DNA of 64,000 nucleotides, from contig OY760175.1 of assembly GCA_963663165.1 (NCBI GenBank), positions 5,024,001-5,088,000 of the forward strand, read 5' to 3'. Source of the DNA: an uncultured Desulfospira sp. (GTDB lineage: Bacteria > Desulfobacterota > Desulfobacteria > Desulfobacterales > Desulfobacteraceae). A model generated the notes under the pieces. That model saw only the letters and a program-made list of their open reading frames with translations, was not told where the DNA came from and searched no databases. Positions 20,742 to 58,577 of the stretch are shown one piece after another (positions within the stretch are counted from its first letter, which is position 1; the number at the start of each line of letters is the position of its first letter). Made by a program: the position numbers and the translations under genes.

Positions 20742-20924
20742 TTCTTGTGCTTAAATTCAGATTGCATGACTCATCAAAGAATTTTTTTTCTTTAGAAGAA
20801 AATTGGGTATGCCATATAGAAATTTAAATTTTTCCACGGAGGAATCCGGCGGCAGTATGCTGACTATCCGTGGTGCTATTTCAGGCCCGTGATCAATTTA
20901 TTTTACACCAAAGGAGAGAAAGAA

Positions 20925-22997
20925 ATGTATTCTGGCAAACACTTGATGGTTGGATGGTCAATTTTCATACTGTTGGTTTTGAACTTTGGCGTGCCCGCTC
21001 TTGCACAAGAAAATAATGATGGGGGAATCCTACTCGAATCAATTACCGTAACGGCGGATAAAAGAGAAAAAGATATCCAGGATATCCCCGGCAGCGTGTC
21101 CGCATTAAATGACATCCGGATAGAGGAAGCCGGAATAAATGCAATAGACGATATTGATAAATATGTCCCCAATTTTGAGATTTATAGAACATACGGCTCT
21201 AACAGCTATCAGAGCATAAGAGGACAAAGTAATCTGATTGATTTCTCATCAGCAGTCGGCACATATATAGATGATGTGCCTAATTTTGGTTTTACCGGGG
21301 TAATGACAAGTCTCTTTGATATTGAGCGTGTTGAGGTTTTAAGAGGACCCCAAGGTAATTTATATGGAATGAACTCAGCGGGAGGGGTTGTAAATATCAT
21401 CACCAAAAAACCTGGAAATGTTTTCAAAGCTAAGGCGTTAGCAGAATACGGCAATTATAACTTGAGAGCTTTTCGTGCCGGGGTAAGCGGCCCTGTTGTT
21501 AAAGATAAGGTTTTTATCGGATTTACCGGATCATATCGAATACGTGACAGCTATATCGAAGAAGAGGGAGCAGATACCCATGAAGAGGAAATTTTTTCAA
21601 GCAGATTGCAGTTACGATGGGTCCCATCTGATGAAACAGACATTCTTTTTACCAAAAATCAGGATGATTATTATTGCGATTTCGATTCATGGGTCGTTCC
21701 GGGCTATGATGATTTCAAGATTAAAAATAGAGGACTCAAAGAAGGGGATGATATAACCGACAATGTATATTCCCTGAGAATCAAGCATCATACGTCTTGG
21801 TCGGATATTACTTCAATCACCGCTCTGGTGGACAATGACAAATACACTGATGCAGGAAAAGATTATAAAACAGGGGGTGATAACTTAAAGCATCGAATCA
21901 TGGACTTGGAAGATAATAGATTTCTTCAGGAGATCCGATTTGCTTCTGTGGATAAAACAAATAGCTTACAATGGCTTTTAGGCGGATTTTATCTGAACGG
22001 CACTCAAGATACATATTATAATATGCGCAGGGATACCGGTACTGCAGGTGCTCCTACCGGGGTCTATACAGATGATTACACCACAAGTAAAATCGACACA
22101 ACCACCTTTTCTCTTTTTGGTCAGGCTGATTATTTCTTTTGGGAAAAGTTTACGTTCACAACTGGTGTACGATTCGATTATGATGAAAAAAAATCTGATT
22201 TTTATCACAACAACAGGGGAGCGGTGACTGCAGATTATGTGGATTCCGAAACTTGGACCAGTTTTTCACCGAAAGTTGCTCTCGATTACCGGATCAATAA
22301 TTCTGCCATGACTTATATCAGTGTAGCAAGAGGGTACAAAGCAGGCGGTTATGCTACTTGCTCTTCAATGGGCGATACTCCAGATTTAGCCAAGTTTGAT
22401 CCGGAATATGCAATATCTTACGAAGCCGGTATCAAAACAAACTGGTTGAATAACAGACTTATCGCAAACATGAGTATGTTTTATTCAACTGTGGATGATA
22501 TCCAGGTTTTATATATTAATCCGGACAGTACCTTTGGGTTGAGAAATGCCGCCGAAGCGACAATGTGGGGAATTGAGGCAGAGTTAAATTTTCGTCCGAT
22601 AACCGGTCTGCAGATCATAGGATCTTTGGGCACACTTGAAACGGAATTTGAGAAACACGAAGAAACTGCATACGAGGGGAATGACGTTCCCTTTGCTCCG
22701 AAATTCAATGCAGGATTAATTGTCCAGTATAACGCATCATGGGGGGGATACATACGAGCAGAATCTGTTTGGCATGGCAAAAGTTTTTTTGACGAGTCCA
22801 ACACATACAGTCAGGATGATTATATCGTATCAAATGCAAAGATTGGGTATGAAATAGGAGCCCTGAATATCAATGTATATGTAAACAATATCTTCGATAA
22901 AACATATTATACTATTTACAATTACGGAAGCGGTGTCGAAAAAGCGGTAACCGGCACCCCCCTTACCTGTGGCGTTCAGGCGACAATAAGATTTTAA
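20925..22997 (+). CDS. TonB-dependent receptor (FyuA/metallophore-receptor-like)
   Basis: AAGGAG RBS, signal peptide, TonB-box ESITVTA, DIERVEVLRGPQGNLYG, terminal F. Confidence 0.93.
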   Translation: MYSGKHLMVGWSIFILLVLNFGVPALAQENNDGGILLESITVTADKREKDIQDIPGSVSALNDIRIEEAGINAIDDIDKYVPNFEIYRTYGSNSYQSIRGQSNLIDFSSAVGTYIDDVPNFGFTGVMTSLFDIERVEVLRGPQGNLYGMNSAGGVVNIITKKPGNVFKAKALAEYGNYNLRAFRAGVSGPVVKDKVFIGFTGSYRIRDSYIEEEGADTHEEEIFSSRLQLRWVPSDETDILFTKNQDDYYCDFDSWVVPGYDDFKIKNRGLKEGDDITDNVYSLRIKHHTSWSDITSITALVDNDKYTDAGKDYKTGGDNLKHRIMDLEDNRFLQEIRFASVDKTNSLQWLLGGFYLNGTQDTYYNMRRDTGTAGAPTGVYTDDYTTSKIDTTTFSLFGQADYFFWEKFTFTTGVRFDYDEKKSDFYHNNRGAVTADYVDSETWTSFSPKVALDYRINNSAMTYISVARGYKAGGYATCSSMGDTPDLAKFDPEYAISYEAGIKTNWLNNRLIANMSMFYSTVDDIQVLYINPDSTFGLRNAAEATMWGIEAELNFRPITGLQIIGSLGTLETEFEKHEETAYEGNDVPFAPKFNAGLIVQYNASWGGYIRAESVWHGKSFFDESNTYSQDDYIVSNAKIGYEIGALNINVYVNNIFDKTYYTIYNYGSGVEKAVTGTPLTCGVQATIRF

Positions 22998-23001
22998 TAT
23001 A

Positions 23002-23255
23002 AACGGTCACGGACCGTCTTTGGTTATCCAGCCAAGCATCGGTCCACAACAAAAAATGACCGTCTTTTCAGCTTGCTAGCAAGACTTTCTTATAACGGCC
23101 ACGGGCCGCCTTGGTTATCCAACCAAGAACCGCCCACAACAAATATTGAAAGAACTCAAAAGGTTGCTGAGTCTTTCATATAAAAACAACCACAGACGGA
23201 TTGTTTGTTAACCCTGGTCCGTCCAATTTTTCAGCCTTTTGGGGGACTTCCTTAT
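23002..23255 (+). repeat. Tandem ~92-bp structured repeat (two clear units plus a degenerate third), copy A
   Basis: Units start at 23002 and 23094 with aacgg(t/c)cacgg(a/g)ccg...ttggttatcca(g/a)ccaag...ccacaac; homologous copy at 57186-57370 on the minus strand. Confidence 0.85.
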
Positions 23256-23272
23256 AAAAAAGAGGATTAGGA

Positions 23273-23905
23273 ATGTATAGAAAACAAAAAATATGGGCAG
23301 TGGCAATAACAATTGGCATGAGTCTTTTTCTATCGGGCAGCGTTCAAGCCGAAACCTCAAGTAATATTTTCAGTGATTGGCAGGGCGAATTCATGAGCAG
23401 GGAATTTGTTAATGAAACCCCTGAAATGGATGCGGTTTACAAAAAAGTGGTCATTGAAGCCAAAAAGTTTGATAAAAATTATACCAAAGCCCAGGTCAGG
23501 GATATTTTAAAAGGAAAAGCGCACACGAGTTTTTGTCGTATTTCCTTAAAAGCGGATGTCATTTCTTTTTATGATGAAATGGGGAATGCGGTGGAACACC
23601 GGTATAAAGCAACCGGAACCGTACCGGATATTTTTGGAAAACAGCAATTTGAATGGCATGCCTTTGAAGCTGTGGGCAAAGAAGCTGAGGGCTCTGAATA
23701 CAGGTATATCCTTATGCTTAAAATTCATCAGCATAAAAACGGCCAGCCCCATTTCCATCTCAGGTACGGCAGCAAGGGGGCCAGGGAACTGACCGGCTTG
23801 TATGGCATGAAAAATTGGTGGCCCACAATGGTCAGGCCTGATTTTGATGTGAGCGCTTATATAAGCAACCTCAATCCTAAAATAATGGCCAGATTTTTGC
23901 CTTGA
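23273..23905 (+). CDS. zinT: ZinT/AdcA-like periplasmic metal-binding protein
   Basis: SDWQGEF, HQH...HFHLRYG, NWWPT motifs; signal peptide. Confidence 0.7.
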   Translation: MYRKQKIWAVAITIGMSLFLSGSVQAETSSNIFSDWQGEFMSREFVNETPEMDAVYKKVVIEAKKFDKNYTKAQVRDILKGKAHTSFCRISLKADVISFYDEMGNAVEHRYKATGTVPDIFGKQQFEWHAFEAVGKEAEGSEYRYILMLKIHQHKNGQPHFHLRYGSKGARELTGLYGMKNWWPTMVRPDFDVSAYISNLNPKIMARFLP

Positions 23906-55827: not shown

Positions 55828-57144
55828 TTATTTGGCGTTTTTTCTGGGTAAGACAATGTCATGTGCAAATCTGCGGAATTCTTCTTTGAGGTCTTCTTCG
55901 GACTTTACCCGGGGATCAAACATGTCATAGGCAAAGCTTAAAAGGGGAATATCTGCCTTTCGCATGGCTTCCTTGAGCAGGCCGATGAGTCCCCAGGCAT
56001 GCTTGCAGCCCATGTGCCCTGCGAAAATGGCACAATCGGCATTGAATTCATGGACCACGTTGATCAGATCGTCAATATACAAATCGGCGTTGCCTTTGAA
56101 CTGGCGGGACATGGGCATCACGATGGTCAGTTTTCGGGCAAGGCTGGTCAGGATCGCCTCAGGGCTTGAGGTGTCCAGATAGGCCTCGGGCGTGACATAT
56201 CCGAACAGGTCCATGGGGACCACCATGTCCAGTTCTTCTTCCATCCAGTCATAAAAGGGAAGGTTCCACCAGATGGGGTCATGAAACCAGATGGCCCGTA
56301 TTTTTTCATCGTTCTTTGTGGCCTTTTTGCCGGCCTGGGCCCGCTCCTTGGCATCGGCCGCCCATTCCGAGGCCAGCCATGTGCCGGCCGGGGTCCCGGA
56401 CAGGGTGTTCTGGATGATAAAACCGAAGGTCACCACCCGGCCCAGCTGAGGACAGGGCAGTTTTGTGCGGTAGTTAGACCATTCCAGCAGGTGTTCCACC
56501 ATTTTATTGCTCTCTTCGCAAATGGCCTTGAGGCGGTCCCAGTCCAGTTTTTTGCCGGTTACCCGTTCCAGGTATTTGATCTCTTCCTTTAACTGGGAGG
56601 CAATAAATTGAATCTCCCGGTCACCGGCGTAATAAGGAACATCCAGGATAAAGGGATCTTTTTTCATGATGGACCGGAACCCCTCGGCCGCCACCATCTG
56701 GCTGTCACAGGGGGTGTTCACGAAAATGCCGCCCAGGGGGGGCGGGGTCAAATTTTTAAGCATATACCCCAGGGCCAGCCGGTCTGCGGAACAGACATCC
56801 ACGGCCAGGGCATTGGCTTCGGTCAGGTCCATGACATCCATATTGATCTGATTGTCGCCGTACCAGCCCTGGAGTCCGCCAAGGGCTTCAAATCCCAAGG
56901 GTGCCACAGACCCCTCTTCCCCTAAGGCAAATACCAGTTCAGGAGAGTTTCCCAGGTTGGTATAGATAAAGGGAACCTGGTCCATCTGCAGCTGTACCAG
57001 GCCCTCCACAAGCCCCTTGGTCACGGTGAGCCAGGCGTTCCAGGCCCGGGAATCCGGATTGCCCTGATGTTTTTTGATTTCTGAATTGATACCGGAATAG
57101 ATGGTTTCCAGTTCGGTGGGGACATCAAGTCCTAAAATTGCCAT
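55828..57144 (-). CDS. 2-hydroxyacyl-CoA dehydratase / benzoyl-CoA reductase family subunit (alpha-like)
   Basis: CSADR, TPCD, LERVTGKKLD, GCKH, DMFDPR; GGAGG RBS before the ATG at 57144. Confidence 0.85.
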   Translation of the reverse strand: MAILGLDVPTELETIYSGINSEIKKHQGNPDSRAWNAWLTVTKGLVEGLVQLQMDQVPFIYTNLGNSPELVFALGEEGSVAPLGFEALGGLQGWYGDNQINMDVMDLTEANALAVDVCSADRLALGYMLKNLTPPPLGGIFVNTPCDSQMVAAEGFRSIMKKDPFILDVPYYAGDREIQFIASQLKEEIKYLERVTGKKLDWDRLKAICEESNKMVEHLLEWSNYRTKLPCPQLGRVVTFGFIIQNTLSGTPAGTWLASEWAADAKERAQAGKKATKNDEKIRAIWFHDPIWWNLPFYDWMEEELDMVVPMDLFGYVTPEAYLDTSSPEAILTSLARKLTIVMPMSRQFKGNADLYIDDLINVVHEFNADCAIFAGHMGCKHAWGLIGLLKEAMRKADIPLLSFAYDMFDPRVKSEEDLKEEFRRFAHDIVLPRKNAK

Positions 57145-57185: not shown

Positions 57186-57370
57186 TTTTTATATGAAACA
57201 CTCAGCAACCTGTTGAGTGCTTGCAATATTTGTTGTGGGCAGTTCTTGGTTGGATAACCAAGGCGGCCCGTGGCCGTTATATAAAAGTCTCACTAACGTC
57301 CTGAGAAGACTTTCATTATTCGTTGTGGACCGGTCCTTGGCTGGATAACCAAAGACGGTCCGTGACCGTT
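57186..57370 (-). repeat. Tandem ~92-bp structured repeat, copy B
   Basis: Reverse complement aligns unit-for-unit with 23002-23185. Confidence 0.85.
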
Positions 57371-57431: not shown

Positions 57432-58577
57432 CTATCTCAAGGCCCCGCTTTCAAGGCTCTCGATAAAGGCCTGCACACGGGTATTGATCTGGCCGTACCC
57501 CCTGGACAGGTATTCCCGGTCAAGAATCAGCAAGGGGGTGCCGTCCGACTTTGCCTTCCGGTTAAACACAAAGGTGTGACCCGAGTTGAGAATGCAGTGA
57601 TTGAGCCGTTGAACAATATATCCGTTGGTGTTGTAGTCTGGGCTGATTTTTTTAAGGTTTTCGTACCGCTTGTCCATACTGGCTTCCATCCGGGCACAGG
57701 GCATTCTGAAAAAGTAGCGCTGAGCAATGCTGGTGAGGGGATCGCCGTCTTCAGCCACCGGTTCTTCATAATACCGGGCACCAAAACAGGTATCTTCATA
57801 AACCACAAGGGCGCCCTGGTTTTCGATGGCGGCCACCAATTCAGGTTCATCCATTTCACCGCCGGTGATGGCCAGCCGCGCCCGGATTTTGCGGGTTTCT
57901 CCCGGTGCGGTTTCAAGGGCCTTGAGCAAGTCTTCAAGCAGGCGGTTGTACGGTTCAAGGGGCATTACCTGGGCCGCAATGGTCACGGCACTGGCCTGGG
58001 CACCGGTAAGGGGCGGATCGGGCCGTTTTAAAAGGTCATGGAGAAAGGACAGATTCTTTCGAACCCCATTGTGAATCTTGATGGCTTTGGACAGTTTTTC
58101 AGGATCAATTTTAACGTCAAAATGGGCTTGAAGGGCGACCACCAGGTTCTTTAACTCCTCAAGGTAAAAGGCAAAGTTATTCTGATCCTGGGTGCGGGGA
58201 ACCGAAATAACCCTGCAAAACTCGGTGTCTGTCTTCTTTTCCCAGATATCATAGGCCCTTCTGCTCTGATCACACCCGTTGGTGGCCACAAGGGCGTCAA
58301 TAAACCCGAACCGGCCGTCCAGGGCCAGGTTGGACGTGTGCCGGATAAAGGAACACAGATAGGGGCTCAGATAGACATCGGCATCGGCGGTGTCCTCGCT
58401 GCCGGCCCCCCGGATCCGGTAAGGCGCCATGCCCGCAGCCGTGAAAATTTCCCCCGGCACAAGAGAACAATAGCATCCCGCCACTTTGCCCCCGGAAGAT
58501 ATCCACTCGGCCATATGGGGGTTAAGCGGCTGTTCCAGGGCATCTTGAAAAATCTGGATGATCTCGTCTTTTTCCAT
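57432..58577 (-). CDS. 2-hydroxyacyl-CoA dehydratase / benzoyl-CoA reductase family subunit (beta-like, Cys-rich)
   Basis: CYCSLVP.E, LCSFI, GCDQ, EDTCFG, PCARM, NHC, GQINTRVQAFIE. Confidence 0.85.
   Translation of the reverse strand: MEKDEIIQIFQDALEQPLNPHMAEWISSGGKVAGCYCSLVPGEIFTAAGMAPYRIRGAGSEDTADADVYLSPYLCSFIRHTSNLALDGRFGFIDALVATNGCDQSRRAYDIWEKKTDTEFCRVISVPRTQDQNNFAFYLEELKNLVVALQAHFDVKIDPEKLSKAIKIHNGVRKNLSFLHDLLKRPDPPLTGAQASAVTIAAQVMPLEPYNRLLEDLLKALETAPGETRKIRARLAITGGEMDEPELVAAIENQGALVVYEDTCFGARYYEEPVAEDGDPLTSIAQRYFFRMPCARMEASMDKRYENLKKISPDYNTNGYIVQRLNHCILNSGHTFVFNRKAKSDGTPLLILDREYLSRGYGQINTRVQAFIESLESGALR

Follow-up and report, generated by a model that had tools for sequence, protein, structure and literature searches.

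What are the hairpin-rich repeats that follow a receptor gene in this window (the whole stretch of DNA analysed, 64,000 nucleotides, from an uncultured Desulfospira sp.), and do they serve the host as RNA or move as DNA? The first-pass annotation had described tandem units at this site and a second two-unit block farther along, and had left both readings standing. We located the units at 23002-23256 and at 57190-57370, the second block lying on the minus strand in sense with its flanking genes, as had been described. In what follows, G000 is the genome holding the window and G001 is its sister genome, which holds the orthologous locus L016. The elements and their neighbor genes are these:

20889..22997, plus strand: TonB-dependent receptor gene (PF00593, PF07715), a host gene outside the element
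23002..23093, plus strand: mini-element unit 1, with ends equal to those of the insertion sequence (IS) described below
23004..23016, plus strand: leader hairpin C-GGTC-ACG-GACC-G, adjoining the AA core and competing with the base of hairpin 1
23094..23182, plus strand: mini-element unit 2, 89 bp, ending in TTTCATATA
23185..23256, plus strand: decayed third unit, its right half alignable to other copies
23273..23905, plus strand: gene for a ZinT-like periplasmic protein (PF09223, E 5e-7), a host gene downstream of the array
55828..57144, minus strand: second 2-hydroxyacyl-CoA dehydratase D-component gene (PF06050), a host gene downstream of the second array
57190..57370, minus strand: two-unit array inserted at ACT^AA; the orthologous site in G001 is empty
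57432..58577, minus strand: 2-hydroxyacyl-CoA dehydratase D-component gene (PF06050), a host gene upstream of the second array

Units in the window and copies in the genome

Unit 1, which starts 4 bp after the stop codon of the receptor gene, consists of the left end AAC-GGT-CACG followed by the leader hairpin, a long hairpin (hairpin 1) and the CACAACAAA motif, and its left inverted repeat has mutated to TGACCG. Its right end is TTTCTTAT, the final A of which was displaced by the insertion of unit 2; the latter occupies the TAT^AA site made by the right end of unit 1 (junction class TAT|AAC). The structure called hairpin 2 in the first description is formed by two subterminal inverted repeats brought together, with a short filler between them. 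In unit 1 it is broken, and the left inverted repeat is now the exact complement of the unit's own leader (TGACCGT versus ACGGTCA), a change (23002-23066) that looks like a template-switch conversion.

Two details of the first description stood only in part. The stated unit length of 92 bp is that of unit 1, but the commonest single unit is 91 bp long (63 of 109 single units) and array periods are 90 or 91. The degenerate third unit was recovered in its right half, which matches another copy with a BLAST E of 5e-6 and is the sole support for the unit; the left half gave no match with the left-end HMM, the middle (the CACAAC motif and the left inverted repeat) is lost, and the segment folds no better than shuffled sequences (z −0.4). 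The decayed third unit occurs at L016 too.

The copy number check proposed earlier was run over the whole of G000 with an HMM built from its own copies, and gave 323 matches in 268 clusters, 258 of them near full length, which places copies at about 250 loci. Longer variants of 127-147 bp have the same ends. Among the members of the taxonomic family, the skeleton pattern occurs in 65 of 112 genomes, with up to 488 matches per genome, and in 26 of 301 genomes of the order; a reversed control gave 0. Viral contigs yielded six pattern matches, all of which lacked the left end and lay within ORFs, and these were judged to be chance. An all-against-all BLAST of the neighbor genes of 20 low-copy loci revealed no common mobility gene.

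Around the 23002 array, genes for an AraC regulator, the TonB receptor, the ZinT-like protein, a methyltransferase and a binding protein form a cluster. A 573-aa DDE transposase gene (PF01609, 17740-19461) lies just upstream of it, and an RtcR-type sigma-54 regulator gene (PF06956, 26518-28194) lies downstream of this uptake cluster.

An IS110-family element with the same ends

The mini-element skeleton is exactly that of an IS, with both ends and no gene. The IS starts with AAC-CCC-CATG, a hairpin, CACAACGAA and a 10-bp inverted repeat, and the partner repeat lies 3 bp from the IS right end TTTCATATA. Its gene is accompanied by about 110 bp of non-coding DNA upstream and about 370 bp downstream. 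A relaxed left-end search found four G000 copies that continue into other DNA: two intact copies of 1,738 bp, one copy interrupted within the 3′ non-coding region and one left-end remnant. Other insertion sequences have landed in the copies at G000:C1:4960282 and 4913741, immediately behind the donor guide (see below) in one and 67 bp inside the left end in the other. We consider it very probable that the unit is a MITE of this IS110-family element, that is, the IS ends alone, with the recombinase gene and the guide-RNA region deleted. The class is a known one, so the suggestion of a novel motif was dropped.

The IS, referred to here as the helper, encodes a 419-aa DEDD recombinase (PF01548 and PF02371). 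Residues D22, E73, D109 and D112 are invariant in all 75 aligned recombinases, and position 310 is S in 71 and T in 4 of them. The protein thus combines a DEDD RuvC-like domain with a PF02371 domain bearing the G--P----S motif of the IS110 family, the serine being followed by AG rather than G. It resembles the IS621 recombinase (PDB 8wt6), which likewise has a DEDD RuvC domain together with a C-terminal one that contains the catalytic serine (phmmer E 3.5e-9).

The ends were compared at 78 metagenome loci from relatives and at 25 loci with PF02371 in four genomes, a sample in which copies of one IS count several times and 5 loci have no match to the query. The left-end motif was found at 76 of the 78 IS loci with 150 nt of upstream sequence, the two misses being distant IS110s and one match (L201) being spurious; the right-end motif was found at 65 of the 71 loci with enough flank. 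Among 40 distinct end pairs, subterminal inverted repeats were 8-11 bp long in 37 and 7 bp in one, and none was read in two. They leave a left extension of 29-34 bp (31 bp in this element) and a right extension of 3 bp; at the 7-bp position there is only a 3-bp ATG.

These features recall the IS1111 group, which has subterminal inverted repeats of 7-17 bp (PMC11208160), usually 11-13 (PMC11187229), terminal extensions of 7 bp on the left and 3 bp on the right, and recombinases of 330-350 aa, those of the subgroup to which IS110 belongs measuring 395-455 aa (PMC11187229). The helper is like IS1111 elements in its subterminal repeats, its 3-bp right extension and the absence of target duplication, and, as in ISEc11, in the long non-coding region downstream of the recombinase gene (PMC11187229, PMC11208160). 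It is unlike them in its left extension, which is 29-34 bp long and contains a hairpin instead of measuring 7 bp; in its recombinase, whose 419 aa fall in the 395-455 range (PMC11187229) rather than that of 330-350 aa; and in its guides, of which we found only left-side ones. Because the left extension and the protein length do not agree with the IS1111 features, the sequence would place the helper in the IS110 family only.

Helper and mini-elements occur together in arrays. Full ISs lie inside mini arrays in G005 and G162, tandem full ISs occur in G162, and the ends abut at tandem IS junctions in G162, L171 and L190. In contigs of runs X4, X6 and X7, from two studies, the right end of this IS is followed without a gap by the left end of a mini-element of the unit-1 subtype; additional IS sites in these contigs all come after TAT. 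A right-end-to-left-end joint was absent from the contigs of four runs, contigs being a form of data that drops rare forms. The shared ends, shared targets and mixed arrays suggest that the mini-elements are mobilised in trans by the helper recombinase.

Insertion rule, guide region and tandem arrays

Relatives were searched for empty sites, and clean ones were found. Of 77 relative loci, 52 have syntenic flanks in G000; 13 of these sites are filled and 39 have no unit, although at one of the 39 (L038) a decayed remnant is present. At most syntenic sites divergence prevents the junction from being read. Six are exactly readable (L015, L034, L040, L044, L066 and L071), and the comparison of G000 with G001 provided one more. 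In all seven, AAC...ATA has been inserted between NNN and AA (NNN^AA), with nothing duplicated. L023 and L077 fit this rule with one change each, and L032 departs from it; the filled site of L032 has a partial left end in addition, with resolution at a stretch of 8 bases that match between element and target. Across 800 kb of G001, eight of nine syntenic G000 arrays are absent, and seven of eight G001 arrays are absent from G000, with 16 and 12 arrays left aside as lacking a syntenic pair. The 57190 array is among those absent from G001. At L065, the relative and G000 are 100% identical over the array and its two 900-bp flanks, against about 92% elsewhere, which could reflect either recent exchange or a matter of assembly.

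The triplet that precedes a conserved AAC in the 3′ non-coding region of the IS is the same as the triplet to the left of the element. This identity holds for 75 of the 77 IS copies and for 54 of the 55 distinct RNAs, with 16 different triplets represented, compared with a mean of 8.5 and a maximum of 19 matches in shuffles; column by column, the match is 49/49, 49/49 and 48/49. On a 52-tip tree the guide triplet has changed 16 times or more, so the match is not accounted for by kinship, and the empty sites show that the matched triplet belongs to the target. A second string, the donor guide, tracks the IS right end, including its ATAC and AGAT variants, in 74 of 76 cases. The non-coding region therefore holds guides matching both target and donor, as in the IS110 family. 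Comparison of RNA columns, a method blind to invariant positions, found no guides for the right half of target or donor, in contrast to the bridge RNAs characterised so far; no column tracks target positions +3 to +7 or −4 to −6 or the variable left-end triplet. RNAalifold gave only a weak consensus for 60 guide regions. Judged by its letters, the region is laid out like the left guides for target and donor of a bridge RNA (PMC11208160), with an AA core and with right guides not detected, and it is predicted to be transcribed and bound by the recombinase. In G000, no guide RNA with another triplet was found standing alone.

A further observation concerns the IS's left end. At L160 the target-guide arm of the element's own RNA region runs collinear with the left junction (NNN-AAC, ATG, hairpin, CACAACRAA). 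This collinearity is clade-wide, but the R position shows no covariation. It may be that the left end is a paralogue, in DNA, of the RNA target-guide arm. At L160:1626-1666, contigs of runs X1 and X6 also show a second guide-RNA variant, different from the first but again of this clade, so these samples contain another helper.

How might the arrays arise? The helper's DEDD/serine recombinase, loaded with its RNA, would excise or copy a mini-element (junction CATATA-AA-C) and, at the AA core, recombine it into whichever NNN-AA the guide specifies. Top-strand-only and direct-transfer routes have been described in a preprint, so that a circle would not be the sole possible path (bioRxiv 10.1101/2025.10.25.684509). 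The right end CATATA-AA contains both TAT^AA and ATA^AA, and a helper guided by TAT or ATA could therefore insert into any resident copy. With such a guide the resident right end would itself be the target, and mini-elements and full ISs would pile up head to tail. In G000, where the guide is TAT, tandem junctions are TAT in 54 cases, ATA in 23 and other in 5, the ATA-type junctions also matching the predicted circle junction; in G005, where the guide is ATA, all 24 junctions in nine loci are ATA. The guide pattern occurs in 24 genomes of the family. Mini matches number 15-488 in the 10 of these whose guide is TAT or ATA and 0-15 in the other 14, a contrast that is confounded by kinship and assembly quality but holds within genera g3 and g11. 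We conclude that self-targeting is the likely cause of the arrays and of the copy-number blooms.

The sequences to the left of the mini-elements follow the same code. In G000, the flank is TAT, ACT, AAT or ATA, the four commonest guides in the clade, at 137 of 156 arrays (153 of 185 in another count), compared with a background of 7.7%. In G001 the flanks are nearly all TAT (37 of 47, with the duplicate L078 and L010 excluded). Self-insertions behind units that went unrecognised swell the TAT class, as is seen for unit 2. These flank classes would record visits by helpers with different guides. Only a TAT helper was found in G000, so the ACT and AAT classes must rest on vanished helpers or on tolerance of mismatches; our reading is that ACT and AAT helpers visited the G000 lineage later.

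One could envision instead that the units are IS110 scars, left where full ISs were deleted on site, or that they were multiplied by recombination or gene conversion in the host. The helper was not found in G001 (267 pattern matches), G013 or G138, and a strict guide-RNA pattern is missing from 47 of the 65 mini-positive family genomes. That helpers are missing from many mini-rich genomes agrees with scars; mobilization in trans requires that helper loss be assumed. The 23002 array also fits in part: L016 holds the same number of units in flanks that are 95-98% identical, yet both of its units differ in subtype from those at 23002-23182, which conversion could explain, as could replacement or independent insertion at one site. 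No empty orthologue of this locus was found, the G001 site being filled and the receptor gene not being found in five other genomes. However, identical interiors of 89, 91, 127 and 147 bp recur at dozens of unrelated sites, empty sites are clean and flank triplets match guides. We therefore regard the origin by scars or host recombination as very unlikely, and retain the MITE with its dispersed copies, its filled and empty sites and the target rule of the helper. The earlier suggestion of a non-autonomous mobile unit is borne out by the hundreds of copies, by orthologous sites that are empty and by an autonomous partner that shares its ends with the units.

Hairpins, gene context and known relatives

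The four full units of the window fold better than shuffled sequences on their given strands (z −3.1 to −4.3), and the A-T to G-C and G-U to A-U swaps noted earlier in hairpin 1 are present in the sequence. Covariation was found as well, although not chiefly there: in an alignment of 168 distinct units the strongest signal falls on leader columns 5:15 and 7:13, so no helix of the family covaries more strongly than the leader, previously described as fixed. In a hand-picked set of 24 units from five genomes, 97.5% of the cells of the leader are paired, with 20 double changes, compared with 81.9% for the competing long hairpin and 91.7% for its base; these are counts and not probabilities, the units being related to one another. 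The leader helix is present in 185 of 216 G000 left ends and in 0 of 50 distinct IS left ends, and it is missing from most low-copy mini-elements of other genomes. The donor bases that it covers lie beside the core, where no RNA guide was found; so placed, it may help to open the donor. The covariation would also result from template-switch repair of a quasi-palindrome or from selection on the transcript.

One possible hypothesis is that the units are a cis-acting structured RNA family kept by the host for processing, stabilisation, attenuation or as a two-state switch, with the likeness to the IS being secondary or the copies domesticated. Three observations speak for it: two mutually exclusive helices, the leader and the base of hairpin 1, both keep their pairing; the leader hairpin belongs to the mini-elements and not to the IS; and orientation is biased. 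Gene contexts were determined with a simple purpose-made gene caller, using genes that scored above 25. The first-pass annotation had both blocks in sense between co-oriented genes, and the family at large is not confined to that arrangement: of 252 G000 loci, 111 are in sense and 48 antisense between co-oriented genes, 59 lie between divergent and 28 between convergent genes, 5 are mixed and 1 is inside a called gene. A sense excess between co-oriented genes remains (111 of 159) that exceeds target availability (P 1.5e-5), which leaves room for selection at the RNA level. Stop-codon targeting was rejected as the cause of this bias, given that called stop codons occur at only 12 of 156 arrays and that 53% of target words are in sense.

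Against a host RNA family, intergenic regions of all kinds are used at similar rates (co-oriented 159 of 1,527, divergent 59 of 643, convergent 28 of 332), most sites are polymorphic between the sister genomes, hairpin 2 has a free interior in which unrelated repeats are often found, and a genome of the same genus (G002) has no pattern matches. Rfam has no family that reaches its gathering threshold in the window, in keeping with the earlier remark that no known riboswitch was recognised; three sub-threshold matches are weak and at chance level (the best is U7, E 0.048). A host RNA family thus appears unlikely to us, and the tandem RNA structure offered earlier does not account for the family, the contexts being proportional to the available regions and the conserved letters being the ends of the IS. 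Integron attC sites and hammerhead, HDV-like and group II intron RNAs were dropped on inspection of their motifs, with no Rfam match at threshold. A scan called no terminator on the antisense strand.

Alternatively, the units might be REP- or BIME-like elements spread by an HUH transposase (Y1, RAYT or IS200/IS605). They do share with REP/BIME served by TnpA-REP a high-copy, intergenic, hairpin-rich and modular makeup without target duplication (PMC6006769), and G000 has 14 PF01797 matches. But none of these 14 Y1 genes is flanked by units, the nearest unit being 680 bp away; there is no GTAG foot, which agrees with the earlier remark that the units are unlike the GTAG REPs; the tandems are direct; replichore bias is absent (121 leading, 126 lagging); the ends belong to an IS110 element, whose RNA the target follows. 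We consider this explanation largely refuted already, and extremely improbable.

Returning to a MITE with an IS110-family helper, the closest precedent is MITEPpu9 (the ssr9 module) of ISPpu9, an IS110-family element of Pseudomonas putida KT2440; it has eight copies, encodes a small RNA and inserts into REP sequences (PMC12288879). Both are gene-less modules within IS110-family ends, found next to the IS and alone (PMC12288879), with a long left box containing an internal inverted repeat, a short right box and a common core dinucleotide. The present family differs in its hundreds of copies, its five-base NNN-AA target, its downstream guide region, its 8-11 bp inverted repeats at the ends and its arrays formed by self-insertion. 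IS621 has a nine-base left and a four-base right target guide, a CT core and an upstream RNA (PMC11208160, PMC11208158). The helper resembles it in that target and donor have guides of their own, which covary with target and IS end, and in having a core dinucleotide, but would read three bases plus the AA core, on one side, from a downstream RNA. A description of this clade or of self-targeted arrays was not encountered in the literature consulted, mostly open papers without supplements and without ISfinder, where the IS may be catalogued.

What is unusual within a known class is therefore the five-base, one-sided target, the self-targeting, the 31-bp left extension and the covarying leader hairpin confined to mini-elements. 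The proposed origin names a source and a mechanism for one of the family's commonest intergenic repeats, which could otherwise pass for a regulatory RNA. It provides a natural minimal donor of about 90 bp and 16 natural guide variants for a short-target bridge recombinase, so that guide rules, one-sided recognition and self-targeting become directly testable, and it makes mini flank triplets readable as a record of helpers gone from the genome. Two features give the family its interest: a guide that is short, one-sided and reprogrammed in nature, and self-targeting, to which arrays and blooms are likely due. As a joint scheme, which we put forward tentatively and with more doubt than confidence that all of its parts hold together, a one-sided five-base code with many natural reprogrammings would turn resident copies into landing pads whenever the guide is self-matching, and would drive family-wide mini blooms with repeat cargo; the mini hairpin would replace the right donor guide and open the donor beside the core, and the left end would be a DNA copy of the target-guide arm.

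As for cargo, GTAG-type palindromes, C-run/G-run palindromes and heptamer tandem repeats lie between the inverted repeats in pattern matches of G280, G222, G122, G205, G110, G162 and G315-G317, and mini-elements may spread such other repeats. In three G000 units the inner loop of hairpin 1 is inverted relative to the usual orientation, seen in 143, and five G000 clusters hold units on both strands. A CRISPR-like array of regular palindromic units and unique spacers is located at G000:C1:6442094-6443431.
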